The position numbers and the translations under genes are program-made. A DNA stretch of 64,000 nt, taken from the NCBI GenBank assembly GCA_030390025.1, contig CM059432.1:97218001-97282000 (forward strand), read 5' to 3'. Of the stretch, positions 1 to 45,762 are shown one piece after another. Numbering within the stretch: position 1 is the stretch's first letter; each line of letters starts with the position of its first letter. Source of the stretch: Squalus acanthias. Its lineage: Eukaryota. The notes under the pieces are model-generated. The model had not been told where the DNA came from. It ran no database searches and was given only the letters and a program-made list of their open reading frames with translations.

Positions 1-745
1 ACATTTTCCTTGCCAGGAAGACTTCTTTGAGTTCTACAGAACTGACACAGGAAGACTCTTCTTCGAGTTTTATCGAACCGGTGTGAGGGCACAGGAAGAC
101 TCTTTTTTGAGTAGAGTCGGAACTCCGAGGACAACACAGATCTTCATGACAGCAGACGTTCCAGCCTGCTAGCCGGAGCAGAAAGGAGTAAACAAGTGGG
201 GCCAGGAGACCCCCTGATCGACACGTGGGCGCTGCGGTGAAAAACATCCGATCAGAGTTTTCGGAATTCTCCGAGTTATCACGAGTGGTGAGCATGAGTC
301 TCGAATCCTACGAATCTAGCTTAGGACAGATATTGATAGGGGAGGGTTTCAAGTATTAAGGATAATTGTAATGTGTGCCCCCATTTACGATGTGTCGTTC
401 GTTCCTCGTTTCCCTGAAATTAGTTACATAACTGCATGTAAGATTGTACTGTCATTAATCTGTGCTTATGACATGTATTTCGTAATCTTAAGTATTATGC
501 AATAAAGATTTTCCATTTCGTACCATTCAACCGAGTCTACCTGAGTTTCATCTCCATTACTGCTCTCGCATCTAAGTCCAGTGTCTAGAACCGTAAGGGC
601 GAGTGGGTCGAACCACTCACAGGTGTGTCTAGTGCTCCCAGACTGGCTGGAGACCAGAACAGGCAACAAGGCCTAAACCCGCACTAGCACCCGGGCTGCA
701 CAGAGCCACACGAATCTCACAGGCTGAGAGACAAAAACCCTTACA
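1..745 (+). repeat. 5' LTR (partial, 3' portion)
   Basis: Near-identical to 11086-11830; ends ...CCCTTACA; followed by GAAAA and the PBS; AATAAA at 501-506. Confidence 0.95.
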
Positions 746-749
746 GAAA

Positions 750-2554
750 ATGGCGACCGCGGCAGGACACTGGCAGCGAGAGGGCAGTGTGTTAGACTTT
801 GGTGTGAATGTACGAAATGTTATGCAGGAAAAGATAGCAGATTATGTGTTCAGAAAGGTAAATCTAACTAAGAAATGGATAAGTGACCTGTTAGCGGATA
901 AGAGTCCACTAGAGGCAGCCGAGAGGTGGACAGATAGTAAGGAACATAAAATGACAGTCGAGAAAGCAGTCTGGTTAATGTGTTACAAAAGGCAGGTCCA
1001 GATTTCAAACCAGGTCATTACAGCGCAAACAGCTCGGATCAGGCATTTAGAGGAGGAAATGGATGAGAAAGTCTCTGGAGGGGAGTTGCTCATCAGGAAT
1101 TTAAGTGCGCTGCACCGAGAACGCCAGGAAATCACCAGTCACCACAAAGCAAAAATAGATTACCTCGAGTGTCAGGTCACTGAGGCAAAGTTAAGTGAGG
1201 GCAGACTAAAGGAACGATGTGCCCGCCAAGCTGCCCAAATAAGAGCCCAGGAAGAGAGCTTAACGGGGGTTAGGGCGGCATATAAGATGGCCCTTGAGGA
1301 TAAATTTCAGGGGGCCGATCATAGCGCCTGCCAAAAGGAGATAGAGCACCTTAAAAGGGCCGTGAACAAAGCGCACGGCATGGTGTGCCTTATCAGTCCG
1401 TCAGCACACCAGCCGCTAGTAGATGAGGAGTTTCAGAAATTCCCACCAAGTAAAGCAAAGGAAGTATTAGCCACTATGCCCTCCGCGCCACCCAGCTATT
1501 CGGAAACCTGGGTAAGGGAGGAAGTAGTAGAAGAAATGAAAGAGCCCACTGAGGGAGAAGTGGAAAAGGGACCGTTGTGTCCAGTTACGGGTATAAAAAG
1601 GGGCCCAAACGGGAACGGTGGGGAACCAGGGGATCTCCTCAACCAGCTTGTGTTGCCTCACAGCTCACACCAGCTGAGAGTTATGATAAATCACGTACGG
1701 AAGCTAACCGAGTCAGACGACCCTTCCGTACATTTCAGAGAAGTTGAGCAAACCGCAGCCATTAACGGCTGCGATGATGGGGAAACAGCAAAAATGCTAT
1801 TATTTTCGTTAGGCAGTTCAATCCTTCAGTGTCTCTCGGACGAGAGCAAGAGGGGAACCAAGACATATGAGGCATTAAAAAATGAGGTCCTAGAAGTGTT
1901 GGGGATGGACGATGAAGGTCCGTTTGCTAGAGTGGGACAGACAGTGCAGATGGAGGGAGCACCCCCGAAGGTTTTTGCCGACAGGCTGTGGCCAGTATAT
2001 CAGCGCAGCTGTCCAGGTGCGCCAGAGCGCGACGCTGTGGACGGCGTCGGTTTAACTCATTGGCTCAGGTGTATAGTAGCCAACAGTTTGCCAGCCGTCA
2101 GAGAGCAGGCAAAAGCGTGGTTTGATCCCACTGACACAACATTACGGAAGAGTCGGTCTTAAATCGACTCACGGTAGGATACCGCAATATAAGGGGTATG
2201 GGTACACGTCCCCTTAAGGGAAAAGTACATGAGGTACGACCCGCAGCCCCGGCTCAAAGGGAGTGGCATCAGGAGGGTAACCGCGCCCCGCAGGCAAGTA
2301 ATGCTTGTTACGGGTGTGGGAGGACAGGGCACTGGCGCAAGAACTGCAGGAACCCTTGGAAGGATTCCAGGGATAAAAATCCCGCAGCCCGAGCCCAGAT
2401 GCCTGTCTCGGTTAGGGAAGCTAGTGCACCCACCCCTCCCGACAACCTCGAAACAGTGTTGGGAGCCATGCGCAACTTCATGAGTGCACATGGAAAAGTG
2501 GCGGTTGCTACCGGCCCCGTAGGTGCCGCAGGCCCGTCTAACCATACCCAATGA
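750..2554 (+). pseudogene. gag: gag, split by a 1-nt frameshift near 2135-2140
   Basis: ORF 750-2162 (coiled-coil-like region, PSAPPSY, capsid-like helical region) continues in another frame (ITEESVLNRL...) into ORF 2198-2554 with zinc knuckle CYGCGRTGHWRKNC; ends at TGA 2552-2554. Confidence 0.88.
751..768 (+). promoter_or_regulatory. Primer binding site, complementary to 3' end of tRNA-Arg (TCG-type)
   Basis: TGGCGACCGCGGCAGGAC, 5 nt after the LTR; reverse complement GTCCTGCCGCGGTCGCCA matches the vertebrate tRNA-Arg(TCG) 3' end as I recall it (not searched). Confidence 0.85.
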
Positions 2555-5500
2555 CTAGAGCCCGCGCAGCCCGTCTACCTGTGTCCGCTCAGCTACGATG
2601 CGTGGAAGCGACCCCTGGTGGAAATGGAGGTAGAGAAACAGAAGGGTAGTTATTTGTTGGACACGGGAGCTTCTTGCACCGTGATTCATACAGATAGCCC
2701 TTTTGACTCACCGCTATCTACCAAGGTCCCAATCACATTAGCGAGGTTCATGGGAAAAGAACAGGCTGGCGCGTTCTCCCTTCCGCTATCCATTCGTTTG
2801 GGGGCACTCCACATCAAGTGGAAGTGCATATTGATGGAATGGCAGGAGGGGGGTGGAAGAGGTATCCTCGGGTCCGATCTCCTATCAGGACACGGGATCC
2901 TTGTGGACCTCAGAAATCATTGTCTCTGGGGGGCTAAGAGTGAAAAAGGCGAGGTAGTGGTAATTCCGGGGAGGAAGAAACAGGGGTCCTGTGTACCATG
3001 CAGCCATCCGGAGGCTACGACCTTGGGCTCATGGTCGCAGATGTCCCAACGGACATGCAAACGTACGTGTCAGATAATATGCACGCGTTTGCAACCCACA
3101 AGCACGATTGTGGGAGGGTTACCGGGTTTGAGGTCAGCGTAGATGGGGACCCCATGACCCGGCCCCAAAAACAGTATAACTTCCCCAAAGAAGCAGAACC
3201 CGATATGGAGACAGTAATGTCCTCCTTGGTGCAGCAGGGCGTGTTGAGGCCGATAGCCACGCACGTGAACTCCCCATTATGGCCGGTTAGGAAGCCGGAT
3301 AATTCGTGGAGGGCCACGGTGGACTACAGAGTCCTTAACAGTAACATTCCTGCCTGCGCGCCCACGGTAGCAGCAGTTGCTGACCTAATAGGGAGTATCC
3401 CAGCGTCCGCGACCACGTTCACGGTGCTGGATATCTCGAACGGTTTTTGGTCCATCCCGCTGCGGCGAGAGGACCAGTACAAGTTTGCCTTTACTTTCAA
3501 AGGACAACAGTACACGTGGAACTGTCTGCCACAGGGTTTCCACAATAGCCCCAGTATTTTCCATCAGTGTATGGCAGGAAGTTTAAAGGAGTTTAGTCAG
3601 CCCAATCAGATAGTGCAGTACGTGGATGATTTGCTCCTATTTACGGATTCAAGGGAGGAGCATGGACCACTGCTGGCCGAGTTGTTGGAGCTGCTAGCGA
3701 GAAAGGGTTTTAAAGTAAACCCTAAGAAAGCACGTATTGGTCAGCAGGAAGTAAAATTCCTGGGGCTGACCATTCGCGCTGGGGAAAGAGCCATAGATAA
3801 GGCTAGGAGAGAGTCGGTGCAAGAGTTACCGATTCCTAACAACATAAGGGGTGTGAGGTCCTTCTTGGGACTGACCGGTTACTGCAGGGATTTTATCGAA
3901 GACTATGCGGCCACAGCGGCGCCGCTCCTCCGACTCCTCCATAAGGGAGTGGAGTGGTCTTGGGATGAGGGCTGCCAAGCAGCCTTCGAGAAGTTAAAAA
4001 GGGATCTGCAGACCGCGCCAGCCTTAGGGGCCATAGATGGGGGGAAGGAGTTTTTCCTGGAGGTAGCTGCCAGCGGGGACAGCTTGAGCGCTGTGCTGCT
4101 CCAAGAGCGCCACGGCAAGCTGAGGCCGGTTGTCTATTCGTCCAGGGTGTTAACGGATGTGGAGAGGAGTTTCTCCAATTGCGAAAGGCACCTTTTAGCC
4201 ACGCATTGGGCTGTGAAAAGATCAGCGATCTTCACAGGGCTCTCTCCCATCACTCTCCTCACCCATCATACACCAACTAAGATGCTTTTAGATGGGAGGA
4301 TCAAAGATGGGACCGTAAGCAGCGTGCGTATTGCGCGCTGGACCCTTCTTCTTTCCCAGATGGATCTTAGAGTTAAAGGTCTTTGCGAGCCCAGGCTTGC
4401 GGCCAATTTGGTATACCCCGGTACAGCCCACCGGTGTTCGGTGGAAGGGGTGTGGGACGTCAACATAGGTTTGCGGGCCGGGATACATCCCACTGGGCGC
4501 GAGATTTATGTTGATGGTTCTAGCACAGTATCTGCTGGCGAACGACTCACAGGGTGTGGAGTTTATGACCCTGCGGCAAACCTTGCCCTGGCGATCAAGC
4601 TCCCTAGCACCATGAGCGCGCAGCAGGCTGAGCTGTCTGCCGTGGTGTACGTTGTCACCCACCCAGACATTTTCCCAACCCCATACACGATTTGCTCGGA
4701 CAGTATGTTCACATGCAATTCATGTACGGAATACCTGGCCATTTGGTCCCGCCGTGGATACACCTCCGCGGACGGGCGACCTTTAACGGTGAAGCCCTTG
4801 CTGGAAAAGATCCTAGCAGCAGTAAGGGAGGAAGGGGAGATTTCATCCATAAGGTGAAGGCTCACTCCTCCACAGAGCCCCGTGGGGAGGGCAACCAACA
4901 GGCGGATGCGCTAGCCAGGGAAGGTGCCCGCAACGGCATTTTCTGGGACCCCTATGGGACCAGACCCATGGCAGCGATCCAAGGCAGGGACGGGAATCCC
5001 GGGAACACCAGGGTAGCATTGCCCCTAGACCTTAAGACCGTCCAGAACCAGGATCCCGCCCTAAAAGCAGTCCTAAAAACCATTGCAGAGGGGAAGCAGG
5101 TAGAGGGTCTGTACAGTACGGCAACCCTCTCAGTTAAGGAAGGCATGCTGTTCCACGAGGAGCAGTGGGTTGTGCCACAGCAGCACAGGAGGGAATTCCT
5201 CCAGTTGGCTCACGAGGGACCAGGGGCAGGGCACCCCGGGCCCGAGGTTACCTGGCGACGGGTAGAGCAAGCGGGATGGTGGCCAGGGCTCAGGGAACAG
5301 GTCCGCGAGTTCTGTGCAAACTGTCTCGTGTGCGCTGCAAACAACCCAGACCCCCAGAAAAGGAAAGTGCCCATGGGGCACGTAAGAAGGGTAGAGGGAC
5401 CATGGCAGTTGATACAGATCAACTATATAGGGCCCCTGCCCACCACCCAGGGAGGCTATAAATACTGCCTCGTCTTGGTGGATGTGTTTTCCAAATGGGT

Positions 5501-7085
5501 GGAAGCCTTCCCCTGTCGAACAGCTACGGCACTGGGTACTGCAAAAATCTTGTTCAGGGAAGTGTTCTCGCGGTGGGGACTCCCCCGTTTTGTGGAGTCA
5601 GACCAAGGGAGTCATTTCACCGGCCAGGTGATGCAGAACACCCTCATGCTTTTGGGCATCGAAGGGAAGTGGCACGTAGCACACAATCCCCAGTCATCCG
5701 GGATTGTTGAACGCATGAACCGGACCCTGAAGGAGAAATTGAGGAAAGAGACTAGGAACTCGCCCCAAAAATGGGCGGAAGTTCTGCCTTTAGTCCTCAT
5801 GGGGGTCCGGGCCAGTCAGTCAAAAAGTACGGGGTACTCCCCGCACGAGGTGATGACGGGGAGGCTCATGCGAACCCCCACCCATGTGCTAGCGCCGGTG
5901 CTCACTGAGGGTCAGCTCCAAGAGATAAGCAGGGACAAGTTCGCCCAGACCCTCTTGGAGCGCCTGAAGCAGGTTTATGAGCAGGCGGCTGGGAACATGG
6001 GAAGGCAGCATCAGGGCAATCGCCTGTTGCTGGAACCCCGCAAAACGCGGGAATGGGAAGTAGGAGACCAGGTTATGGTCAGAAACTACGCAAGAGTTGG
6101 GAGTCTGGAACCACTGTATATGGGACCATACAATATTGTAGATAAGGCAAGTCCCATGGTTTACGCCGTAAAGGTACCTCGGCGCACTAAGTGGTTCCAC
6201 GTAAACCAGTGCAAATTGTACAAGCCAGGTGCACAAGGGAAAACCACAGGGGCAAAACCTGCGAGTGGGGACTCGCAGCCCCAGGTAGGACCACAAGGCA
6301 CACAGGCAGGCAAAGCAGCTTGCATCAGGGGAGGAGACATCCTGGAAAATTGTGAAACATTTTTGTGGGGTTGGGAGTCAGATGAGGGAGAGTTCCCGGA
6401 ACTCGAGTCAGATGAGGATAGTGATGAGGACAAGTGGGAATCGGGGAACGCAAGGGTCGCCCCCGATTCAGGTATAGGGAGGACAGGGGCTGCAGATAGA
6501 GATCCACACAGGGTGGACACCGAGGCTGCAGGTCCCGAACACAGGAGGGAGGAGCTAGGGGAGGCGGAGCCAGCCGCTGTGAGACCACAGGGCGTGACGG
6601 CGGAAACCTCAGAGCCCGAGCCGCCCGCCTTGAACGTCCTGCCCTCGAGGGAGGTAGGGATTGCGAGTGAAGGGCCGCCTGCTGGGCCGAGCAGGGCGGT
6701 GCCACAAGCTGCAAGTTCCAAGGTCAGGGAGGCGGAGTCAGGGGAGGCGGAGCCAGCGACTGTGGTGGGACCACAGGTCGTCCCGGCGAAAGTCTCGAAA
6801 CCCGGTCCGTCGGTCCTGGAATTCCTGCCCCCGACAACTCCTCGTAGGTCAAGTAGAGAACCCCAGCCCAGGAAGATGTGGTCATGGCCCCAGACTGCAC
6901 CAAGGCGTAGACTCAAGGTTAAGGCAGCCCAGGTAGGACCCGGTCCCATTGCAGCAGCAACAGGCTGCGGCAGATCAAAGGAAGGGGTCAGTGCCCTCCC
7001 ACCGTCGGGAAGAGCTCGCAGCAGCCTTCTCAGAATTTACAGGGGCCGCCCTGAGAACGGGCGGCGCTGTACAGTTATAGTTTAA
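2555..7085 (+). pseudogene. pol: pro-pol: aspartic protease, RT, tether, RNase H, integrase, C-terminal extension; frameshifts near 2970 and 4842
   Basis: LLDTGAS and GILGSD (PR); LDISNGF, LPQGF, YVDD (RT); VDGS, QQAEL, SDS, HKVKAH, GNQQAD (RNase H); H-H-CLVC, INYIGP, SDQG, VERMN, GPY (IN). Confidence 0.93.
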
Positions 7086-7335: not shown

Positions 7336-9687
7336 ATGGAACGAATTCTAGTATTGCTCGCGGCAATCGGATGTGGATTGGCCTATCGAGGCCGCACCAA
7401 GGATGTCGTGGTGTTTGGATGCTCTGGGGACACGGCCCCCATCGCGGTGGATGGGACCGGAAGACGGGAGGCTGAGGAGACCACCACCTATTTCCACAAG
7501 GGAAGGTGGCCAGGATGGCTGGGAACAAACTCAACGGAGTATTCTAGCACATCGGGGTTTGCCTACCAAGAGACTTCTTTAATGTGCCCCAAAGTAAGGA
7601 TCATCGCACCCAGAATCAGCGTCACCGTCGGCAAACGGATTTGTTTGACTTGTAGTGGGAATGTCCCATTGAGCCAATGGTGGTGGCTGCGAAAGCTGAG
7701 CAAAAACATGAGGAACTCTTCGGTCGAGTGGGAACGACTGGGTAATAATACCCATCGGACAATTACGGGGACAAACAGACAAGTGAGAGTCTGTTGGGAC
7801 AAATGGTGGGAACCGGATGAGGGAATTTATGTATGCATGTGGGGGTCAAAGTACGCTTGCCCCAAAGGCATCTCCATATTTTTCATTAACCAATGGCAGG
7901 ATAACGGACAGGGGATGAGGTGGGATGCGAGCACCAGGGGGTGCGGAGCCCCATACTTTTCGATCCCGGTAAATGCCACTGAGCTCATTACGCGCCCACG
8001 CAAAGCCCCGCCCACGATTCCGGTGGTTCTAGCTGAAGAGGAAGGGTGCCCTAAAACTAGTAAGGGACCCGGGAATGGTTTGGTACTGGTCCCCACAGAC
8101 CAGATACTATTTCAGGGGGTACATTACGTGGTGGCCTCGGTGATTTTAAATCTCACCGAGGTGCGGTTACCAGAGTGGTGCCCCAAAAAGACGGAACAGT
8201 TGTATCAGGTCCTGTTGACCAAGATGTTCAGACAATTTTACGAATTCGATTTCGCGGAAATTGATAAAACAAGTTTGTAAACCGCACCACATGAAGTTTT
8301 GGATCAAGTAGGGAGGCAAAGAAGGGGTGTAGTGAACGACGTGTTCACTGCTTTTAACACGGGTACATCTGTGGTCAACGCTCTAGACAGTGTGGAGCTG
8401 CAGACCCAGATTAATGGTTTAAAGACGCAATTAAAAGACATTCTAACAGATGAGAATAAAGTGGTTGGGTCGGGTTTACACGAGGACCAAGCCATGACTC
8501 TCCATTTAAAGGAAATTATAGCAGAGTTAGAGAAACATGCAAAGACGGTAAATGCCTTGATTTGGGAAGATCGGAATGCATCCGATCAAGCTGCGCAGAA
8601 CGAGGTGTGCGTGCTTTACGGGGCGTGGTTACTGGGCGAGGGCCGCAGTAATTTGGAGGATTTAAAACAAGGTTTGGTCCCGTCCTGGATAAGTAACAAA
8701 CACCTGCGGGCGCTCCACCCTTTTCAGAACGCATTAAGCCCGTGCCAGCTCAGGCTAGCTTCAGAAGCATACCCAGTCCCCGTGGACTGTGGACGATCAA
8801 ACCATGCTATTATGGGTATAGTATTACGTATGCCGGTTTTGGGCGACACAGCAAAGCCCGCCCCGGTGTATCGGGTAGAGAACATTGGTGTCATTCATGG
8901 GGGAGCCCACATTCGCTATGCAGCGGTTCCACCTTACGTCATCCGCTGGGAGCAAACGATGACAGGTACAGATCTCTCTGGTTGTCGTGGCAGGGGAGTA
9001 CACATAATACTGTGTCCCCAGCACTTGAATGCCTTTTTAACACCACAGTGCGGGTTCAGAACGGCTGGCGCCAAGTCCATGAATTGCACCATGGAGGCAA
9101 TGGCACAAGATCATGTGCCTCCGCAGGTAGCATACATCGGGGGTGGAACATATTGTGTTACCACTGCAGCGCAACACTACCAGCATGGAAACCGTAGCCG
9201 GTGTCCGGTGAGTGACAGCAGTTTCTGTTTCAAACCCAGGGCGGAAGTTCAAGTAGCACAACGGCGAATTGTCCCAATCCCTGAACCATCCACTGTTCAT
9301 CTAACAGTAAAAGAGAATTTCACCGACTTGCAGCGATTCGTCGCGCATTTTGGATACCTCATTCCCCCTCTCCCTGAACACCTCACCAAGCTTTTAAAAG
9401 CCGTCGCGGTGTCACAGAAACATTTTTACACATTAGAACAGAAAACTGTCGAAATAGGAACAGACATTCTGGATATAGTAATTCCACCGTGGTGGAATCT
9501 GTTCACCAATATTGAAGTGCCTTCATGGATCAGAATAGCCTCCCACATTTTAGTCGTATGCCAAGTTTTTATTGTAGTGTACCTATTGATCGTACATTGT
9601 AAAAGAGGCAAACGCCTCACCAAGCATGAAAACACGGGAGAGTGGCGAGAACGTTACGTGCGCGTGCACGATGAAAGCACCGTGTAA
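7336..9687 (+). pseudogene. env: env: signal peptide, Ig-like domain, F-like class I fusion glycoprotein; one in-frame TAA at 8278-8280
   Basis: ORFs 7336-8280 and 8299-9687 share a frame. Hydrophobic N-terminus, furin site RQRR (8314-8325), fusion-peptide/heptad region, Cys-rich core, PPWW, TM segment ILVVCQVFIVVYLLIV. Confidence 0.88.
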
Positions 9688-10123: not shown

Positions 10124-10135
10124 AACAGGAGGGAC
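10124..10135 (+). promoter_or_regulatory. Short polypurine tract
   Basis: AACAGGAGGGAC immediately precedes TGTAG, the inferred 3' LTR start. Confidence 0.65.
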
Positions 10136-10711
10136 TGTAGCATTCGCAATATATCGCGATTTTATTAATAAGGAGAAAAACACATAGTTTCGTTCAAACA
10201 GCTTTTATTTCAGCAGAATGCTGTCAGGTTTTCAAAGTGGACACAAGCAGCTGTAAAATGGCCGCCGCACCTCGTGGCAGAACATTCTAGACTTTTCAAC
10301 AGGCAGACAAGATGGCGTTCCAGTAAACATTTTTGCAAGATCGATTAAGACTCAGCACATTGAAGATAATACACGAGACATCATGGGTTTACAGTATACA
10401 CATAAATACTGAAATCGGTCTCCCAGGTACGAATAAAAGCTATTGTACCAAGTAATCAAGAACCCATCCAAAGACATTAATATGTAGAATCCCAACGACT
10501 CTACGATGAGAGAGCCGTTAGCGGGTAGTTACAGAAAACACTTGGAAGCCCCAAAACCCCTCCGGGGAGAACACCGACCGATTAAACAATGGGAGAAATA
10601 TTAACAGGTACTCAGACATTTACGAGTAGCCCCAAAACCCATTAAAACGAAGATCACCCTATACAAGACATTTGAGCGCCAAACCCTAACAAAAGAAAAG
10701 ACATTAAGGTT

Positions 10712-10742
10712 GGGCGGGAAACGGAAGATTTTGCACTATAAT
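10712..10742 (+). promoter_or_regulatory. Candidate LTR core promoter (GC box, ETS-like CGGAAG, TATA)
   Basis: GGGCGGG 10712-10718, ACGGAAG, TATAAT 10737-10742. Confidence 0.55.
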
Positions 10743-11585
10743 TGCAAGCTCCAAACCGTCCATCTTTCTCTTATTCGGTTGACTCTTATCCTCGTGGCTG
10801 CTCCTGTGCTCTTGACTCGTCGTCTTGTTCCTGTTTGCCTCGTGTCTCTTTTCAAAAGACTGTTGAACTTTACGATCCGCTCGGATCTACCTCGTGTCGT
10901 GTCGCGAAGACCTGTGTAGAACTGGGCTCTGAAGCCTTGAAGCGGGCGCACCATCCCGATAAGTCGGTAAACGGTGTTGGAACCGAAGGCCCGAGATGAG
11001 ATGAGATGAGATGAGATGAGAAGAGAAGAAGACCATACTTATCGCCACGGTCAGTAAGCTCCGACCGCGCCTGTAGGTTGAATAGACATTTTCCTTGCCA
11101 GGAAGACTTCTTTGAGTTCTACAGAACTGACACAGGAAGACTCTTCTTCGAGTTTTATCGAACCGGTGTGAGGGCACAGGAAGACTCTTTTTTGAGTAGA
11201 GTCGGAACTCCGAGGACAACACAGATCTTCATGACAGCAGATGTTCCAGCCTGCTAGCCGGAGCAGAAACGAGTAAACAAGTGGGGCCAGGAGACCCCCT
11301 GATCGACACGTGGGCGCTGCGGTGAAAAACATCCGATCAGAGTTTTCGGAATTCTCCGAGTTATCACGAGTGGTGAGCATGAGTCTCGAATCCTACGAAT
11401 CTAGCTTAGGACAGATATTGATAGGGGAGGGTTTCAAGTATTAAGGATAATTGTAATGTGTGCCCCCATTTATGATGTGTCGTTCGTTCCTCGTTTCCCC
11501 GAAATTAGTTACATAACTGCATGTAAGATTGTACTGTCATTAATCTGTGCTTATGACATGTATTTCGTAATCTTAAGTATTATGC

Positions 11586-11591
11586 AATAAA
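11586..11591 (+). terminator. LTR polyadenylation signal
   Basis: AATAAA, also present at 501-506 in the 5' LTR. Confidence 0.6.
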
Positions 11592-12899
11592 GATTTTCCA
11601 TTTCGTACCATTCAACCGAGTCTACCTGAGTTTCATCTCCATTACTGCTCTCGCATCTAAGTCCAGTGTCTAGAACCGTAAGGGCGAGTGGGTCGAACCA
11701 CTCACAGGTGTGTCTAGTGCTCCCAGACTGGCTGGAGACCAGAACAGGCAACAAGGCCGAAACCCGCACTAGCACCCGGGCTGCACAGAGCCACACGAAT
11801 CTCACAGGCTGAGAGACAAAAACCCTTACAATTAAGAGAGAGAGAAAAAAAGAGACAAAAAGGAAAAGTTCAAACATTTTTTAAAAAGAACAAGCAGAAG
11901 AAGAGGACATTGTAACCCAATTTTCTTTAGGAATTGTTATATTGGCCCTTGAAAATTTAATAATGAATGGCAGGGTAGGTGTACAAAATGTACCAACCTT
12001 CTTGACACCTAAAGTATAGAACCAGCAACCCCATCCATCATGATCTGGATCAATGCAACTGCTTTCATAAGAACATAGGAATTTCTAGATGAATAAAAGA
12101 CTAAGGTCTACTTCGTCTTCTATCATCCTAGTAATCATATGATAATCGAGTTGTTGACTAATCATAGCAATCAATCTCTATCAATTAGTCTACAACAGAT
12201 CCAGACATGATACAAGGAAAACCCCAGTGGTGGAGAGATTTGGAAACCATAGGGCCTAAGCCACCCTTTTCCTCCAAAAGATACTACACTTACCACATCA
12301 TGTCTCAAATTACTTACATTATATCACAAAATTATTTTCTGAAAGCAATCTATCTAATTTGCATTTCTGAGTGTTGAAACAGGTTTGCATCCTGAGAATT
12401 ATTGCCTCCCGACACTAATAGGAATATGGATGGCAAGACTGGCACAAAAGTACTGCCAAGACAGATAAAAAGGTTAAAAATCCTACAGGAACAATTCACT
12501 ACCTGCCGGAGTGAGACTCCACAGCTTCATTGTTCCCACTCTGGTCCTCCAAGGTTCAGTGTCACGTCAGGGCCATAAATCACATCATTAACAAATTCTT
12601 TACTACATGAATTACCAGTCCTAAATGGCTGCGGTGAAATTAATTCGCATTAATGGTGTAAATTCAGCAATTTCTTGACACACAATTAATTTCAATGGAA
12701 GGCTCATGGCGAGGTGACAATTTTTATAGTTTTCTCGAGGCTAACGGCGAAGCAGTGCAACTCGTCCAGCAATTTGTGGAGAAACAGAACTCCTGGTGTA
12801 TCTCTTCTTCACAACAAATTATTGGATATTTTGTAAACTAATAATGGCGAGTGCTGTTAATTCATCATTATTTTTACACTGATTTCTGGGCCAATATCT

Positions 12900-18937: not shown

Positions 18938-20760
18938 ACATAGGAACAGAAACAAAGGAACATAGGAACATAGGAAAAGGAGTAGGCCATTTAGCCCTTC
19001 GAACCTGTTCCCGCGATTCAATGAGATCATGGCTGATCTGCGACCTAACTCCATATACCCGCTTTTGGCCCATATCCCTTAATACCTTTGGTTAACAAAA
19101 AGCTATCAATCTCAGGTTTAAAATTAACAATTGACCTAGCATCAATTGCCATTTGCAGAAGAGAGTTCCAAACTTCGACCACCCTTTGTGTGTAGAAGTG
19201 TTTCCTAATTTCACTTCTTTTAGGTCTGGCTCTAATTTATAGACTATGCCCCTAGTCCTAGACTCCCCAATCAATGGAAATAGTTTCTATCTACCCTATC
19301 TGTTCCCCTTAATATCTTGAATATTTCGATCAAGTCGCCCCTTAACCTTCTAAATTCCAAGGAATACAACACTAGTTTGTGTAATCTCTCCTCATAATTT
19401 AACCCTGGGAGTCCAGGTATTATTCTGGAAAATCTGCACTCCCTCCAAGGCCAATATATCCTTCCGAAGGTGTGGTACCCAGAACTGCTCATAGTACAGT
19501 ACTCCAGGTGTGGTCTAGCCAGGGCTTTGTACACCTGTAACATAACTTCTGCCCTCTTGTATTCTAGTCCTCCAGATATAAAGGCTAGCATTCCATTAGC
19601 CTTTTTAATTATTCTCTGTACCTGTTCATAACATTTTAATGATTTATGTACCTGGACCCCCCCAAGTCTCTTTGGACCTCCACTGTTTTTAGCTTTTCAT
19701 CATTTAGAAAGTACCCTGTTCTATCCTTTTTAGGTCCAAAGTGGGTGACTTCACATTTGCCTACATTGAAATTAATTTGCCACAGTTTTACCCATTCACT
19801 TAATCTATCAATATCTCTTTGTAATTTTATTCTTCTATCTACACTGCCTACAATGCCGCCTATCTTTGTGTCTTCAGCAAACTTGGATATGTGACTTTCT
19901 ATCCCATCATCTAAGTCATGAATAAATATGGTAAATAGTTGAGGCCTCAACACAGATCCCTGCGGGACACCACTAGGCACATGCTGCCAATTAGAGCTCC
20001 TACCCATTATCCCTACTCTCTGTCTCCTGCCACTCAGCCAATCTCCTAACCAGGTCAATAGTTTGTTTTCAATTCCATGAGCTTCAACTTTAGTTAACAG
20101 TCTCTTACGAGGGACTTTATCAAATCCCTTCTGGAAGTCCATATAAATAACATCCATAGACATTCCCCTGCCCACTACTTTAGTCACTTCTTCAAAAAAA
20201 TCAGTCAGGTTCGTCAGGCATGACATAACTTTGACAAATCCATGCTGGCTTTCTCTGATCAGCTGAAAATTTCAAGGTGCTCAGTCACCCTATCCTTAAT
20301 TAAAGACTCTAGTAATTTCCAGACAACAGATGTTAGGCTAACTGGTCTTTAATTCCCTGATTTCCCTCTCTCACCCTTCTTGGGCCATTCAGCCCTTCAA
20401 GCCTGTTCCGCTATTCAGTGAGATCATAACTGATTTGTATCTCAACTCCATCTATCTGCCTTGGCTCCATATCCTTTTATATCTGGTCAAGCAAAAATCT
20501 ATTGATCTCAGATTTAAAATTATTAATTGAGCTGGCAACTATTGCTTTTTATGGGAGAGAGTTCCACACTTCTACTACTCTTTCATAAAGAAATGCTTCC
20601 TAACTACTCTTCTGAATGGCCTGGTTCTGATTTTAAGGTTATGTTCCCTTGTCATAGACTCTCCCACCAGCGGAAAAAGTTTATCTCTATCTACCCTTTC
20701 AATTCCTATCAAATTCCTAAAAACCTCAATCAAATCACCCCTTAACCTTCTACATTCCTC
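18938..20760 (-). mobile_element. CR1 LINE fragments (RT to 3' tail, plus a second 3' fragment from about 20372)
   Basis: SCLTNL, DFQKGFDKVP, PQGSVL, RPHLEYC; (ACATAGGA)n tail at 18938-18975. Confidence 0.85.
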
Positions 20761-21527
20761 TGAGACTTACCATGTGCAAGATTGGATCCTTCACACCACT
20801 TCTGCAGCTCCCATCAATCCAGAAACATTACAGCAGACTCACAACATGCCACACTTACCTGGCGTGGTGTCCGGATGTCGGGAAACACGAGCCAGAAGCG
20901 GCAAAATTCAAAAATAGGCTGTCAACTACTGGCAACTACCTGTTAATAGGCAGGTAATTGCCTTTAATCATCTTCCCGCCGCTAGGTGTCGGGTCCATTT
21001 GCAAATCGGGGACCCGACACTTGGGAAAATTATTTGGAGGCGGGTTGACAGCGGGATCGCAACCCGCCGTCAATCAAAACGACTTTAACCTTTGACCCGC
21101 CTCCAAACCTGCCCTCTGAGCACCAGCAAAATCGTAGCCTCTCTATCTCCTCTATCAAAACCTTTCATAATTTTAAAGACCTCTATTAGGTCACCCCTCA
21201 GCCTTCTCTTTTCAAGAGAAAAGAGACCAGCCTGTTCAGCCTTTCCTGATAGGTATACCCTTGCACTTCTGGTATCATCCTTGTAAATCTTTTTTGCACC
21301 CTCTCCCGTGTCTCTATATCCTTCTTATGGCGACCAGAACTGTATGCAGTTCATCAAGTGTGGTCCAACCAAGGTTTGATACAATTCTACTTTTCAATTA
21401 TTTCCCTTTAGAAATAAACCCGAGTAACATAGAAACATAGAAACATAGAAGATAGGAGCAGGAGTAGGCCATTCGGCTCCTCGAGCCTGCTCTGCCATTC
21501 GATGAGATCATGGCTGATCATCCAAAC

Positions 21528-24326
21528 TCAGTACCCTGTACCTGCCTTCTCCCCATATCCCTTGATACCTTTAGCTTTAAGAAATATATTTAGCTCATCC
21601 TTGAATATATTTAATGACTTCGCCTCAACTACCTTCTGTGGTAGAGAATTCCACAGGTTCACCACTCTCTGGGTGAAGAAATCCTTCCTCATTTCTGTCC
21701 TAAATGGTTTACCCGTTATCCGTAGATTATGACCGCTGGTTCTGGACTCTCCGACCATCGGGAACATTCTTCCTGCATCTAGTTTGTCCAGACCTGTCAG
21801 AATTTTATATGTTTCGATGAGATCCCCTCTCATTCTTCTATACTCCAGTGAGTATAAGCCCAATCGACCCAATCTCTCCTCATATGTCATTCCTGCCATC
21901 CCAGGTATCAGCCTTGTGAATCTTCGCTGAACTCCTTCCATGGCAAGAACATCCTTCCTCAGATAAGGCGACCAAAACTACACACAGTACTCAAGGTGTG
22001 GTCTCACCAAGGCCCTGTACAACTGCAGCAGGACATCCCTGTTCCTATACTCAAACACTTTCGCTATGAAGGCCAACATACCATTTGCCTTCTTCACCAC
22101 CTGCTGCACCTGCATGCTTACTTTCAGCGACTGGTGCACAAGGACACCCAGGTCTCGTTGCACTTCCCCTTCTCCCAATCTATTGCCATTCAGATAATAG
22201 TCTGCCTTTCTTTTTTTGACACCAAAGTGGATAACCTCGCACTTATCCACGTTATATTGCATCTGCCACGCTTCTGCCCACTCACCCAACCTGTCCAGAT
22301 CATCCTGGAGTTTCTCGGTATCCTCCTCGCAGCACACACTCCCGCCCAGCTTTGTGTCATCTGTAAACTTGGAGATATTACATTTAATTCACTTATCTAG
22401 ATCATTAATGTATATTGTGAATAGCTGGGGTCCAAGGACCGATTCCTGCGGTACCCCACTAGTCACTGCTTGCCACTCGGAAAAAGACCCATTAATTCCT
22501 ACTCTCTGCTTTCTGTCCGCCAACCAGTTCTCTATCCAAGTCAATACCTTGCCCCCAATCCCATGTGCCTTAACTTTACCCGCTAATCTCTTATGCGGGA
22601 CCTTATCGAAAGCCTTTTGAAAGTCCAAATACACCACATCTACAGGTTCTCCCTTATCTATTTTCCCAGTTACATCCTCAAAAAATTCCAGTAGATTAGT
22701 CAAGCACGATTTACCTTTTGTAAATCCATGTTGACTTTGTCCGATCCTGTCACTGTTTTTCAAATGCTCAGCTATTACATCCTTTATAATGGACTCGAGC
22801 ATTTTCCCCACTACCGATGTCAGGCTGACCGGTCTGTAATTCCCCGCTTTCTCTCTACCACCCTTTTTGAATAGTGGGGTAACATTAGCTGCTCTCCAAT
22901 CCATGGGTACAGTTCCAGATTCCATCGAATGTTGGAAGATGATCAGCAATGCATCTACTATTTCTAGGGCCACTTCCTTAAGTACCCTAGGATGTAGATT
23001 ATCAGGCCCTGGGTATTTATCGGCCTTCAATACCGTCAATTTCCCGAACACCATTTCCCTGCAAATACTGATTTCTTTCAGTTCCTCCCTTTCATCAGAC
23101 CGTATGTTCTCCAACATCTCTGGGAGGTTATTTGTGTCCTCCTTTGTGAAGACAGAACCAAAATATGCATTTAATTGGGCTGCCATTTCTTTGTTCCCCA
23201 TTATAACTTCCCCCGCTTCTGACTGCAAGGGACCTACACTTGATTTCACTAATCTTTTTCTCTTCACATATCTATAAAAGCTCTTACAGTCAGTTTTTAT
23301 GTTCCCAGCAAGCTTACTTTCATATTCTATTTTTCCCTTCTTAATTAATCCCTTTGTCCTCCTTTGTTGAATCCTAAACTGCTCCCAATCCTCAGGGCCA
23401 CCGCTTTTTCTGGCCAATTTATATGCCCTCTCCTTGTATCTTATGCTATCCCTAATTTCCCTTGTTAGCCACGGTTGAGTCACCCTTTTTGTTTTATTCT
23501 TATGCCACACTGGGATGTACAAATTCTGTAGTTCATCCATGCAGTCTTTGAATGTTTGCCATTGCCTATCCACCATCAACCCCTTGAGTGACATTCCCCA
23601 ATCAATCCTACCCAATTCGCGCCTCATACCATCGTAGTTTCCTTTATTTAAATTCAGGACCCTAGTCTCTGATTCAACTACTTCACTCTCCATCCTAATG
23701 AAGAATGCTATCATATTATGATCACTCTGACCCAAGGGGCCTCGTACAACAAGATTGCTAATTAATCCTTTCTCGCTACATAATACCCAGTCTAAGATGG
23801 CCTGATCTCTGGTTGGTTCCTCGACATATTGTTCCAGAAAACCATCTCGTAAACATTCTAGGAATTCCTCCTCCACAGTATTTTTACTAATTTGGTTAGC
23901 CCAATCTATTTGTAAATTAAAGTCACCCATGATGACTGCTGTGCCCTTACTGCATGCTTCTCTAATATCCCTTTTAATGCCATCCCAAACCTCCGTATTA
24001 CTGTTTGGAGGTCTATATACCACTCCCACTAACGTTTTCTGCCCCTTATTATTTCTCAGTTCTACCCATACAGATTCCGCATCATCAGAGCTAATATCCT
24101 TCCTTTCAATTGTGTTAATCCCCTCTTTAACCAGCAATGCTACCCCACCTCCCTTTCTTTTTTGCCTATCTTTCCTAAATATTGAATAACCCTGGATGTT
24201 GAGTTCCCAGCCTTGGCCACCCTGGAGCCATGTTTCTGTAATCTCAATCAAATCGTATTCATTTACCTCTATTTGCGCAGCTAATTCATCCACCTTGTTC
24301 CGAATGCTCCTTGCATTAAGACACAA
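21528..24326 (-). pseudogene. CR1 ORF2 (APE endonuclease + RT), one stop and a frameshift
   Basis: NARSI, ITETWL, YRPP, GDFN, SDH; NYRPVSLTS, QHGF, DFQKAFDKVPH, PQESVLGP; TGA at 22389-22391 then FTDDTK. Confidence 0.92.
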
Positions 24327-24686
24327 AGGGGGAAAAATTAGGTTGCGCCCCGTTTGGGGCGCAAATATCGTCTGGACGCAAAAATTAGCACCTGGCGCTA
24401 ATTATCGCCACTGACTGGAAACTTCACTTTTACCGCCCCGGGAGGTGAGTGGAGCGCTAAATCAGGCGCTGCACACCTGTCTTAAGGTGCAAAGGCCGAG
24501 CAGTGAGGCGCTAACTCAGCGCGCGAGCGCAGCGCAGGTGCTGCCAGTTAGCGAGGGAACACAGACACACTGGCGCCGGCCAGTTCGTAAAGGGCGGGGG
24601 GGGCAACTTGCTCCCCAGCCACACCCTGCTCATTGCAGCCTTGAATCTCGGCCTGAGAGACCTGTGAATCCATTTTGCTGCCAAGG

Positions 24687-25370
24687 ATGGAGAGGGTGAG
24701 AGAACGAGCTCAGCGCTTCACCGAGCGGGCCTTGGATGCTCTGGTTGGCGCGGTGGAGCGCAGAAAATCTATACTCTTCCCTGAGAGTGGCAGGAGGCCT
24801 TTGCGACGCGAGTACAGAAGAGTGTGGAGGGAGGTGGCTCAGAGCGTCTCCTCCAGGAGCATGGTGCCCAGGACCCATGTTCAATGCTGCAAAAAGTTCA
24901 ACGACCTCACTCGGGTCGTCAGGGTGAGTGGCTTTTTCTCAATACCTCTCCATCCCTCCATCTTAACCTCACTCTATGGCCAGAGGGTCTTAAAACCCCA
25001 ATGCACAACACTCATCCAACACCTATGGCCCTTTCATGAAACACACATACACATTCTACACTTTGCATAGAGTAAGGGCTATTCACCTATGGGAGGCACA
25101 TCAGGCAAGACCATGGCTGCATACAGTAAGGGCTATTCACCTATGGGAGGCACATCAGGCAAGACCATGGCTGTATATTTACTCAGATGCTGTCCTTTTT
25201 CTTGCAGGCCAAGCTGGCACATAATAGGAGACAGCAGCAACGGACAGGTGGAGGGCGGCCTCAGCTGCAACCCCTCAGCCATCTTGAGGAGCGCGTCCAC
25301 AGGATTGTGGCAAGCCGGCTGATCGGTCCCATCGCCACTGGAGACGCCGACCCCGTTCTGGACAGCAATG
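24687..25370 (+). CDS. Harbinger-type Myb/SANT-like DNA-binding protein, exons 24687-24923 and 25208-25370 (3' exons missing)
   Basis: RAQRFTERALDALV...WREVAQSVS...RTHVQCCKKFNDL / AKLAHNRRQQQRTGGG; phase-0 GTGAGT...TTGCAG intron; next donor GTAAGG at 25371. Confidence 0.8.
25071..25178. repeat. 54-bp tandem duplication in Myb gene intron
   Basis: AGTAAGGGCTATTCACCTATGGGAGGCACATCAGGCAAGACCATGGCTG at 25071 and 25125. Confidence 0.9.
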
Positions 25371-25439
25371 GTAAGGTCATCACCTTTTTGTCCTCTGTCC
25401 TTCCACTTGTCCCTCACAACACCAGCCTTTGACACTTTC

Positions 25440-26192
25440 AATCCAACTAGCACGTGGCACTGGTAGCAATCCTGATATTACTACCTTTGAGGTCCTCTTT
25501 TTTAATTTACCTCCTAACTCCCTATATTCTGCTTTTAGTACCTCATCCCGTTTTTTACCTATATCGTTGATGCCTATGTGCACCACGACAACTGGCTGTT
25601 CGCCCTCCCCCTCCAAAGTGTTCTGTAGCCGCTCCGAGTCATCCTTGACCCTTGCACCAGGGAGGCAACACACCATCCTGGAGTCTCGATTGCGGCCGCA
25701 GAAACGCCTATCTATTCCCCTTACAATTGAATCCCCTACCACTATAGCTCTTCCACACTTTTTCCTCCCAGCCTGTGCAGCAGAGCCACCCATGGTGCCA
25801 GGAAGTTGGCTGCTGCCGCCTTCCCCTGATAAGTCATCCCCCCCAACAGCATCCAAAGTGGTATATCTGTTTGAGAGGGGGATGGCCACAGGGGACCCCT
25901 GCACTACCTGCCTGCACCTCTTACTCTGCCTGGTGGTCACCCATTCACTTCCTGCCTGTACACCCTTTACCTGCGGTGTGACCAACTCGCTAAACGTGTT
26001 ATTCACGACGTTCTCAGCGTCACGAACTCTCCAATATGCATCCATCCGCAGCTCCAGCGCCGCAATGCGGTCCGTCAGTAGCTGCAGCTGGATACATTTC
26101 CCACACACATGGTCGTCAGGGACACAGGAAGTGTCCCTGATTTCCCACATATAGCAGGAGGAGCATATCACGGCGCCGAGCTCTGCTGCCAT
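25440..26192 (-). pseudogene. CR1 ORF1 (zinc finger/leucine zipper + SGNH esterase-like), C-terminus lost
   Basis: CSSC...CGKC, LSNRYTTL, IVVGDSIVRGID, CLPGARV, VHIGIND. Confidence 0.88.
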
Positions 26193-26464
26193 GACTTACC
26201 CTTTAATTAATTAATTAAAATTAAACTAATTGAATCCCACCAATTTCACTTCAATTAAATGATATACTCAAGGGCCCTTGCTTAACAGCAGTCCCCGCTA
26301 CAACACAGAGACTCTAGAAACTATAAACCACAGAATTTAAGTGTGGGAAAAAAGGAGAAAAGAGAAATACTCACCAACCAATCACTTACCTGCTTTCTGG
26401 TGACGTCACACTTTGATTATTTTCTACTTCTCTCTCTCCCGCTCTCGGGGCTCAGATTGGTAAG

Positions 26465-34156: not shown

Positions 34157-37012
34157 ACATAAGAACATAAGAAACAGGAGCAGGAGTAGGCTAATTGGCC
34201 CCTCGAGCCTGCTCCGCCATTCAATAAGATCATGGTTTATCCAATCTTGTCCTCAACACCACTTTCCCACTCCCTCCCCATACCCCTTGACTCCCTTGTA
34301 GTTCAAATGTCTGTCAATCTCCGCCTTGAATATATTTAATCAATGGATCAGATCAAAGTTCTGCAGTCCTGCCACATCCAGTCGTGAATGGTGGTGGACC
34401 ATAAAACAACTAACAGGAGGAGGAGGCTCCAAGAATATCCCCATCCTCAATGATGGTGGAGCCCAGCACATGAGTGCAAAAGACAAGGCTGAAGCATTTC
34501 CAACCATCTTCAGCCAGAAGTGCTGGGTGGATGATCCATATCGGCCTACTCCCGAGGTCCCCACCATCACAGAAGACAGTCTTCAGCCAATTCGATTCAC
34601 TCCACGTGATATCAAGAAACGGCTGAGCGCACTGGATACAGCAAAGGCTATGGGCCCCGACAACATCCCGGCTATCGTGCTGAAGACTTGTGCTCCAGAA
34701 CTAGCCACGCCTCTAGCCAAGCTGTTCCAGTACAGCTACAACACTGGCATCTATCCGACAATGTGGAAAACTGCCCAGGTATGTCCTGTCCACAAAAAGC
34801 AGGACAAATCCAATCCGGCCAATTACTGCCCCATCAGTCCACTCTCAATCATCAGCAAAGTGATGGAAGGTGTCATCGACAGTGCTATCAAGCGGCACTT
34901 ACTCACCAATAACCTGCTCACTGATGCCCAGTTTGGGTTCCGCCAAGACCACTGGGCACCCGACCTCATTACAGCCTTGGTCCAAACATGGACAAAGGAG
35001 CTGAATTCCAGAGGTGAGGTGAGAGTGACTGCCCTTGACATCAAGGGAGCATTTGACCGAGTCTGGCATCAAGGAGCCCGAGTAAAACTGAAGTCAATGG
35101 TAATCAAGGGGAAAACGCTCCACTGGCTGGAGGCATACCTAGCACAAAGGAAGATGGTTGTGGTGTTTGAAGGTCAATCATCACAGCCCCAGGACATCGC
35201 TGCAGGAGTTCCTCAGGGCAGTGTCCTAGGCCCAACCATCTTCAGCTGCTTCATCAGTGACCTTCCCTCCAACATAAGGTCAGAAATGGGGATGTTCGCT
35301 GATGACTGCACAGTGTTCAGCGCCATTCATAACTCCTCAGAAAATGAAGCATTCCATGCCCGCATGCAGCAAGACCTGGACGACGTTCAGGCTTGGGCTG
35401 ATAAGTGGCAGGTAACATTCGCGCCACAGAGGTGCCAGACAATGATTAACTCCAACAAGCGAGAATCTGGTCTGACCACCTCCCCTTGACATTCAATGGC
35501 ATTACCATTGCCGAATCCCCCACTTTCAACATCCTGGGGGTCACCATTAACCAGAAACTTAACTGGACCAGCCATATAAATACTGTGGCAACAAGAGCAA
35601 GTCAGAGGCTAGGTATTCTGTGGTGAGTGTCTCACCTCCTGACTCCCCAAAGCCTTTCCACCATCTACAAGGCACAAGTAAGGAGTGTGATGGAATATTC
35701 TCCACTTGCCTGGATGAGTGCAGCTCCAACAACACTCAGGAAGCTCGACACCATCCAGGACAAAGCAGCCCGCTTGATTGGCACCCCATCCACCACCTTA
35801 AACATTCACTCCCTCCACCACCGGCGTAACGTGGCTGCAGTGTGTACCATCTACAAGATGCACTGCAGCAACTCGCCAATGTTTCCTCGGCAGCACCTCC
35901 CAAACCCGCGACCTCTTCCACCTAGAAGGACAAGGGCAGCAGGCGCTTGGGAACACCACCACCTCCAAGTTCCCTCCAAGTCACACACCATCCTGACTTG
36001 GAAGTATATCGCCGATCCTTCATCATCACTGGGTCAAAATCCTGGAACTCCCTACCTAACAGCACTGTGGGAATACCATCACCACACGGACTGCAGCAGT
36101 TCAAGAAGGCAGCTCACCACCACCTTCTCAAGGGCAACTAGGGATGGGCAATAAATGCTGGCCTTGCCAGCGACACCCAGATCCCATAAACGAATTTTTA
36201 AAAAGTGACACCGCCTCCACAGCTCTCCGGGGTAGAGAATTCCAAAGATTCACAACCCTCTGAGAGAAGAAATTCCTTCTCATCTCCATCTTAAATGGGC
36301 GACCCCTTACTCTGAAACTATGCCCCCTAGTTCTAGATACCCCCACTAGGGGAAACATCCTCTCAGCATCCATCCTGTCAATCCCCCTCAGAATCTTATA
36401 TGTTTCAATAAGATCACCTCTCATTCTTCTAAACTCCAATGAGTATAGGCCCAACCTGCTCAACCTTTCGTCATACGTCAACCCCTTCATCCCAGGAATC
36501 AACATAGTGAACCTTCTCTGTACTGCCTCCAATGCAAGTATATCCTTCCTTAAATATGGACGCAGTACTCCAGGTGCGGTCTCACCAGCGCCCTGTAAAG
36601 TTGCATTAAAACTTCCCTACTTTTATACTCCATACCCCTTGCAATAAAGCCTAACATTCCATTAGCCTTCCTAATTACTTGCTGTACCTACATGCTAAAT
36701 TTTTGTGTTTCATGTACTATGACCCCCAGATCCCTTTCTACCGCAGCATTTTGTAGTCTCACTCCATTTAAATAATAATTTGCTTCTTCATTCTTCCTTC
36801 CAAAGTGGATAACCTCACATTTTCCCACATTATACTGCATCTGCCAAATTTTTGCCCACTCACTTAACCTATCTATATCCCTTTGCAGACTCTTTCTGCT
36901 CTCCTCACAACTTGCTAACCCACCTATCTTTGTATCATCAGCAAATTTGGCTATAGTATACTCGGTCCCTTCATCCAAGTCATTAATATAGATTTAAATA
37001 GTTGAGGCCCCA
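34157..37012 (-). mobile_element. CR1 3' portion interrupted by a + strand LINE
   Basis: Tail at 34157-34337; RT C-terminus at 36205-37012 (KFADDTK, QRRFT, WNSLP). Confidence 0.85.
34338..36205 (+). mobile_element. 5'-truncated CR1/L2-group (Crack-like) LINE, RT domain to 3' end
   Basis: [47 protein letters not shown]; 3' UTR with AATAAA. Confidence 0.85.
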
Positions 37013-43070: not shown

Positions 43071-43328
43071 TGTGTGGAATGACTGTCTGTGTGGAGTTTG
43101 CACATTCTCCCCGTGTCTGCATGGCTTTCCTCCAGGTGCTCCGGTTTCCTCCCACAGTCCAAAGATGTGCGGGTTAGGTTGATTTGGCTATGATAAATTG
43201 ACCCTTAGTGTTAGGGGGATTAAATACGTGGGGTTACGGGGATAGGGTGGGATATGTGTCGGTGCAGGCTCGATGGGCCGAAATGGCCTCTATCTGCACT
43301 GTGGGGATTCTGTGATTCTGTGATTCTG
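43071..43328 (+). mobile_element. 5'-truncated V-SINE (HE1-like) inserted in Gypsy pol
   Basis: V core GTGGAGTTTGCACATTCTCCCCGTG...CTCCGGTTTCCTCCCACA; (GATTCTGT)3 tail; TSD TGAAGC. Confidence 0.88.
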
Positions 43329-45315: not shown

Positions 45316-45762
45316 GGGCTGGATTTTAAATGACCCATGGAGTCGGGTTTGGAGGCATGTGGGGGGTTAAATTTGTGGGGTCGGGGTTTCCGACCCCATC
45401 CCGACTCCATCCCGCCTCCACGCAATTTTGACATAATCAGTCGCGGGGTTCCCGACTCCGTCCCGCCTTCAAGAGGCGGGAGAGGCCATTAAAGCCCATA
45501 ACAAGCTCTAAATTGGCTCTGTAATGCCATTTTCAAACGCTGTAGCTCGTTTAACCCTCTTCTGATGTGAAGCACGCCTGGTGTGAAACACTCCAGTGAA
45601 ACCTGGCGGGAGCACAAGTGGATAGCTGACTATCAGCTGCAGGTCCACTATTACAACGGAGATGTGATGAAGGTGGTAGTAGTATTGGGTCTGAACGTCG
45701 CCTCTGGTGCTGCTGCATTGAATGTCTTCAGAGACTGCCTGGGAGGATTTGTTTGGCAAAAA

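Follow-up and report, generated by a model that had tools for sequence, protein, structure and literature searches.

A young endogenous retrovirus of Squalus acanthias with a predicted F-type envelope protein and a probable Ig-like N-terminal arm

Introduction

Endogenous retroviruses (ERVs) related to snakehead retrovirus (SnRV; clade Huo or class III, including CmiERV lineage I of the elephant shark) have been described in shark, frog and coelacanth, according to the accessible portions of the reports (PMC4422223, PMC6001957, PMC4977317, PMC4131045). Envelope proteins (Env) that resemble the fusion glycoprotein F are described in lokiretroviruses (PMC7947760), in foamy viruses, where they are assigned to class Ib (PMC11468914), and in errantiviruses, whose F-type Env is regarded as old and for which a vertebrate survey was announced for later (bioRxiv 2023.10.26.564294), in the parts of these papers that were available. 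No paper that calls the SnRV-type Env F-like was found in the searchable literature, which excludes most subscription papers. As to the origin of Env, the available text of Wang and Han leaves four scenarios open, with independent gains in lokiretroviruses and canonical retroviruses favored later.

The locus described here lies in a window of 64,000 nucleotides, the whole stretch of DNA analyzed, from Squalus acanthias (GenBank assembly GCA_030390025.1, contig CM059432.1, positions 97,218,001 to 97,282,000, forward strand). A preliminary description of this DNA had proposed a young, lokiretrovirus-like element in which a Mononegavirales F-like fusogen is combined with a retrovirus-type pol. 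The evidence presented below makes it probable that the locus is an inactive member of a young ERV family with many copies, from an unnamed lineage that likely diverged near SnRV, basal within the canonical retroviruses, and that its Env is predicted to be F-type (class Ib) with a probable Ig-like attachment arm.

Results and Discussion

Provirus structure

The env span is contained in a two-LTR provirus that is complete in extent, with the following features (window coordinates):

1..745, plus strand: 3' part of the 5' LTR, 99.3% identical to 11086-11830, ending ...TTACA
751..767, plus strand: primer-binding site for tRNA-Arg(UCG), 5 nt past the LTR, pairing with the 3' terminus encoded by host tRNA-Arg(tcg) genes once CCA is added
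822..2554, plus strand: gag, with a putative start codon, a coiled-coil-like N-terminal region, a capsid region and one CCHC knuckle
2555..7085, plus strand: pro-pol, encoding protease, RT (about 3160-3966), tether, RNase H, integrase (5163-6224) and a long acidic, Pro-rich tail
7336..9687, plus strand: env, 783 codons from ATG 7336, interrupted by one stop in the window copy
10124..10135, plus strand: polypurine tract, recognized by sequence
10136..11830, plus strand: 3' LTR of 1695 nt, TGTA...TACA, with AATAAA at 11586
11831..11834, no strand: 4-bp target-site duplication ATTA, with a second ATTA left of the 5' LTR

The 5' LTR starts 940 nt before the window, and its upstream part is in sequence L013. 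The LTR pair differs by 14 substitutions in 1685 columns and one 10-nt indel (0.8%). The primer-site pattern has four matches in the genome, two of which are in genes called tRNA-Arg by ARAGORN. Pfam matches in the provirus comprise the zinc knuckle, RVP, RVT_1, RT_RNaseH, RNase_H, Integrase_H2C2 and rve; pol thus contains a dual RNase H (tether and RNase H), which, to our knowledge, is common to all retroviruses. The gag gene is frameshifted near 2135-2162 and pro-pol near 2950-3140 and 4630-4860, and with these three frameshifts gag and pol are spread across five frames in the window copy. In a second copy, which was read for its layout, gag is one frame and pol is one frame. The TGA at the end of gag is in frame with pro-pol. 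Reverse transcription would be primed by tRNA-Arg at the site listed above, Gag-Pol may be produced by read-through of the in-frame TGA, as the layout suggests, and Env would be translated from a spliced RNA.

Several of these features resemble SnRV. In both, gag and pol share one frame across a stop, the LTR ends in TTACA, and a coiled-coil Gag N-terminus is combined with one knuckle; the primer site is also of the Arg type in both, as we take the SnRV primer to be. The two differ in the gag stop, which is TGA here and TAG in SnRV, and in the 1.7-kb LTR of the window element. An Odin retrotransposon was rejected as a candidate since env is present and Odin is defined by a dual RNase H without env (Odin RT is absent from the trees below).

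Additional observations concern the pol tail, the LTR and neighboring sequence. The acidic, Pro-rich tail that follows the integrase (6225-7085) holds a 73-nt repeat (6509/6692, 73%), and two minus-strand AATAAA near the 5' end of the LTR and an (AGATG)n run within it are seen at 10136-10210 and 10994-11030. Elsewhere the window contains LINE pieces on the minus strand (19636-26195: a 670-codon frame for endonuclease and RT, a separate RT piece and a frame resembling GDSL esterase), an RT frame of 395 codons on the plus strand (34302-35489), and a second, broken LTR-type element with RT and integrase pieces on the minus strand (41385-45366).

The env gene

The env reading frame can be divided as follows:

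7597..7836, plus strand: part of the N-terminal arm that is probably Ig-like, by Pfam, PDB and Atlas matches
8044..8325, plus strand: F2-like segment, with the furin site RQRR at its end (8314-8325, Env residues 327-330)
8278..8280, plus strand: in-frame stop TAA, 12 codons ahead of the furin site
8326..9600, plus strand: F1-like subunit, with a fusion-peptide region, heptads, Cys-rich beta domains, a membrane-proximal helix and a TM segment (about 9535-9600)

The furin site, the stretch GVVNDVFTAFNTGTSVVNAL directly after it, the heptads and the Cys-rich ectodomain are all present as the preliminary description had them. The single TM segment (hydropathy peak of 2.56 from residue 734) lies about 405-425 residues past the cleavage site, in agreement with the earlier estimate of about 420. 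A CX6CC motif is absent, again as described before. The Env-like ORF of Ovex1 likewise lacks this motif, according to the available part of its report (PMC2717909). A gamma-type orthoretroviral Env was rejected on the grounds that neither CX6CC nor a class Ia layout is found.

The short F2/long F1 module that had been proposed is retained in its F1-like and F2-like parts, but not in its extent. The gene starts at ATG 7336, so that the F2-like part is preceded by a signal peptide and by an N-terminal arm some 235 residues long, and the subunit before the cleavage site has about 310 residues. Besides this start and the three gag/pol frameshifts, the earlier reading had overlooked the TAA at 8278-8280, inside its own span. 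Among the 30 env copies examined, the TAA occurs only in the window copy. Because it precedes the furin site, the window copy cannot make the fusion subunit, and together with the three frameshifts it renders this copy inactive. Furin would cut Env at RQRR, and Env would be expected to trimerize.

Predicted fold of Env

Sequence-based searches from Env fail to reach F, and Pfam PF00523 gives no direct match. An AlphaFold model of Env was built on a 39-row alignment of relatives (pLDDT 72, pTM 0.56), and shows long helices past the cleavage site (H98-138 and H147-208). The best PDB matches of this model in Foldseek are hPIV3 F (1ztm, E 1.7e-12) and RSV F (3rki, E 7.7e-11), followed by Langya and Newcastle F. 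The resemblance exceeds chance expectation: at E<=0.001, the model has 47 BFVD and 254 PDB matches, and the top matches listed are fusion or envelope glycoproteins throughout, unnamed rows aside. The BFVD matches include mononegaviral glycoproteins, baculovirus F at rank 5, respirovirus F at rank 9, the Env of Walleye epidermal hyperplasia virus 1 (Q9WHI8) at rank 20 (E 1.4e-7, TMq 0.33) and feline foamy Env at rank 45. Among Atlas clusters, Gypsy/Baculo_F lead at 0.95, with Fusion_gly at 0.94. The TM-scores of the model to F are modest (0.24-0.44, rmsd >13 Å).

The Foldseek and BFVD matches to F and the dual RNase H of pol uphold the earlier claim of an F-type fusogen on a retrovirus-type pol. 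The attribution to Mononegavirales is too narrow in view of the rank of baculovirus F and the leading Atlas clusters. Env is therefore predicted from the model to be F-type, with class Ib taken as broadly as in PMC11468914 and without a special tie to Mononegavirales. It shares with paramyxo- and pneumovirus F, baculovirus F and the errantivirus F-type Env the predicted fold, a furin site, heptads and Cys-rich beta domains. It differs from them in sequence (9-16% identity) and in being carried by a vertebrate retrovirus, with a putative attachment domain of its own. If the model is correct, Env would refold like paramyxovirus F and thereby fuse membranes. The match to Q9WHI8 suggests that the epsilonretrovirus Env may also be F-type. 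Since the Envs of SnRV, foamy viruses and the walleye virus match as well, the F fold is no marker of lokiretroviruses.

At the sequence level, an Env profile aligned with the SnRV Env by HHalign with a probability of 85.6 and an E of 5.6e-6 over 279 collinear columns, with the furin site and cysteines in register, which supports homology of the two Envs and makes a collinear F-like Env module a further likeness to SnRV. HMMER gave 15.6 bits for the same pair, against a maximum of 1.8 among the 125 of 200 shuffles listed; plain BLASTP of Env with the SnRV Env was not significant (E 3.5). Some foamy Envs equal the SnRV Env in HMMER (18.9 and 16.9 bits) over fewer columns, and the profile match to a foamy Env is weak (prob 29). 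None of the ORFs from gamma records is among the top 15 profile matches. The window and SnRV genes differ in length, with 783 codons here and a 1134-codon frame in SnRV.

N-terminal arm of Env

Residues 88-167 of Env probably form an Ig-like domain. The arm matches Pfam Ig_3 with an E of 0.1, has 58 weak matches in the PDB (best E 0.06), those listed being all Ig-superfamily chains, and reaches 0.90-0.92 with Ig clusters of the Atlas; the Env relative P0032 matches Ig_3 with an E of 0.0085. The Ig scores are all under curated cut-offs, and the fold model of the arm is uninformative. The Ig-like arm is likely a receptor-binding module, by prediction, through which Env would bind its receptor.

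The foamy Env, as presented in the accessible text (PMC11468914), similarly has an F-like core of class Ib to which a receptor-binding module is added; there, the module is inserted, whereas the predicted module here is N-terminal and Ig-like, and a leader TM is lacking. An Ig-like domain at the Env N-terminus is also a feature of gamma-type Env and Env-Dbi, in the available portion of the report by Hotzel (bioRxiv 2024.03.17.585361), but on a class Ia orthoretroviral Env instead of a predicted F-type core. The lokiretrovirus Env has the same order of motifs as the window Env by eye, and differs in lacking the arm, which is found in none of the 14 lokiretrovirus Env N-termini compared; an F2-like part next to the signal peptide is taken as characteristic of a lokiretrovirus Env. 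As a separate observation, the N-terminal part of the SnRV Env frame (L030:6131-7600) is long and rich in Cys and Trp, and contains motifs that look Ig-like by eye.

Placement of the reverse transcriptase

References for RT were IMG/VR records labeled by motif, with genus labels that are in part our assumption, and loci with lokiretrovirus motifs and their relatives, several of which share the compared motifs with lokiretrovirus rows. By eye, L030 corresponds to the SnRV entry in the accessible supplement of PMC7947760. Trees were calculated for the RT core (57 rows) and RT with tether (40 rows), with rows chosen from larger sets and near-duplicates and short pieces dropped; one gypsy row is absent from the second tree. 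ERV-L/S, fish FLERV, Odin and CmiERV sequences are outside the scope of both trees, and the foamy rows are of the mammalian type.

The preliminary description had proposed an RT phylogeny. Run with lokiretroviruses, foamy viruses and other retroviruses, it places the window inside the canonical retroviruses and not with lokiretroviruses: in both trees, the window RT and its kin from frog (Xenopus), coelacanth (Latimeria) and unnamed sources are on the canonical side of a branch with a support of 100/99. The window RT is excluded from the lokiretrovirus clade (97/98 and 100/99), the foamy clade (100/100) and class I/II. The window clade is the earliest canonical branch in the maximum-likelihood trees, with weak support (34/80 and 61/91). 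The window RT and the SnRV RT are 37% identical and fall in the same basal canonical grade, and the branch joining them is unsupported. A forced union of the window, its kin, SnRV and P0012 costs 1.5 log units and is not rejected (p 0.47), while one of the window, its kin and lokiretroviruses costs 27 and 33 log units and is weakly rejected (AU p 0.051 for the RT core, 0.035 for RT with tether). The window RT carries the motifs LPQGFHNSP and QYVDDLL and lacks the CPFG-type motif of lokiretroviruses. An errantivirus or Ty3-gypsy element was rejected, with the RT not inside Metaviridae and the RNase H dual rather than single.

Foamy viruses express Pol apart from Gag and are not known to have a zinc knuckle. 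The zinc knuckle, in-frame gag-pol and tRNA-Arg primer site of the window element, and the position of its RT outside the foamy clade (of mammalian-type rows, fish FLERVs not being sampled), make it highly improbable that the element is a foamy-like ERV (clade Tu), despite its 1.7-kb LTR, 4-bp target-site duplication, YVDD motif and F-like Env with a weak profile match. Its short signal peptide also contrasts with the membrane-spanning leader of the foamy Env, as the latter is portrayed in the available text (PMC11468914).

RNase H, integrase and Gag

The nearest RNase H sequences are those of the kin and SnRV, the latter being the closest named, and lokiretroviruses are furthest, with BLASTP scores of 53.5 bits for SnRV, at most 43.5 for gamma, at most 42.7 for foamy and at most 33.9 for lokiretrovirus sequences (a ranking only, not a tree). 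The Gag N-terminus weakly matches SnRV Gag (E 4e-6), the match being partly coiled-coil. The integrase differs from SnRV in being lokiretrovirus-like: it scores 228-259 bits, with 35-38% identity, to full-length lokiretrovirus rows and 133 bits to SnRV. In a 33-row integrase tree, CGIN1 not included, a group with a support of 96/93 unites the window, lokiretroviruses, the kin, L027 and one long gypsy row, with the window outside the lokiretrovirus clade proper (100/100). A union of the window and SnRV integrases is rejected (AU p 0.003). Integrase trees are known for their instability. The lineage either kept an ancestral integrase in common with lokiretroviruses or swapped one long ago.

The integrase grouping and the Env layout are what remains of the earlier assignment to lokiretroviruses; RT, the trait that defines the group, is outside it in both trees. 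In the accessible table of PMC7947760, none of the four chondrichthyan genomes looked up is marked positive. A divergent lokiretrovirus or a sister of lokiretroviruses, the first from cartilaginous fish, would account for the F-type Env with its order of motifs, the dual RNase H, the integrase and the borderline AU p of 0.051 on the RT core. This interpretation is very unlikely given the 100/99 branch that parts the window from lokiretroviruses in both RT trees, the AU p of 0.035 on RT with tether, the different RT motifs, the distant RNase H, the absence of the arm in the 14 lokiretrovirus Env N-termini compared and, by eye, a less hydrophobic fusion peptide in the window.

The opposite affinities of RT and RNase H on the one hand and integrase on the other, with integrase and env adjoining, could also reflect recombination between an SnRV-like gag-RT-RNase H front half and a lokiretrovirus-derived integrase and env; repeated domain swaps are reported by Wang and Han, in the part of their work available. 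Such an origin is improbable. The integrase is outside the lokiretrovirus clade, the same type occurs in the frog and coelacanth kin, so that any swap must be ancient, and Env matches SnRV's own Env, so that no lokiretrovirus donor is needed. A lineage likely near SnRV, with a predicted F-type Env, remains the preferred reading.

Copies, age and selection

A protein search of the 3.7-Gb genome returned 11,382 candidates at first look, and 91 of them were scored; these numbers are biased to the best scorers and are not copy numbers. All 91 scored matches are 97-100% identical, which, with LTRs 0.8% apart, supports the young age proposed earlier. The LTR divergence corresponds to about 2 My at a mammalian rate or about 19 My at a shark rate, both rates being assumed, the latter after the accessible part of PMC4422223. 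The data support a young and abundant family. In 67 of the 91 scored matches, a sample biased to the best scorers, 783 codons or more are open without a stop, and env has neither stop nor frameshift in 18 of 30 DNA-ranked copies. In these 30 copies, the pN/pS of env is 0.14 overall, 0.18 in the arm and 0.11 in the F1-like part, with the caveat that CpG transitions can inflate pS, and of the shared env variants 13 are N and 64 are S, where the corresponding ratio of sites is 3.2. These values show that env stayed under purifying selection while the family expanded. Such selection implies a requirement for Env during the spread of the family, which likely occurred by Env-dependent infection or reinfection.

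The five nearest Env relatives come from Pristiophorus and Rhinoraja. Ten farther relatives were examined out of 50 matches, and the eight named ones are from Mustelus, Chiloscyllium, Heterodontus (2), Pelodytes, Xenopus, Mantella and Latimeria. The named relatives are thus sharks, a skate, frogs and the coelacanth, which in itself makes a cartilaginous fish the likely host. The P0069 cluster of the frog Mantella, with 16 near-identical members (mostly 677 aa) of a distant Env relative, is a second young expansion of the lineage. Three host gene models, P0006, P0030 and P0061 (Niban-1-like, fbxo15 and one unnamed zinc-finger protein), are fused to Env-family pieces and are either annotation chimeras or exonized env. 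Near-identical env DNA was also seen in sequencing runs with five organism codes from six studies (shares 0.39-0.47), and four runs from two studies contain contigs that are 90-99+% alike.

Implications

These results suggest a greater age and a wider distribution of F-type Env in retroviruses than the literature found reports, and an F-like Env should be dropped as a marker of lokiretroviruses. That a basal lineage of canonical retroviruses carries an F-type Env, and one that matches the SnRV Env, favors a single ancestral F-type Env, and trees of Env and integrase would make the question of Env origin testable. It is conceivable, if still somewhat doubtful, that the lineage represents a surviving link from lokiretroviruses to canonical retroviruses, with canonical RT and RNase H, a lokiretrovirus-type integrase and an F-type Env; given F-like Envs in SnRV, foamy viruses and a walleye epsilonretrovirus as well, the ancestral retroviral Env would then have been F-type, the SU/TM Env of gamma-, beta- and lentiviruses a later replacement, and the F core would here have gained an Ig-like attachment domain. 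Because it is young and abundant, with env under selection, the family documents in nature how a retrovirus has recently spread in a cartilaginous fish.
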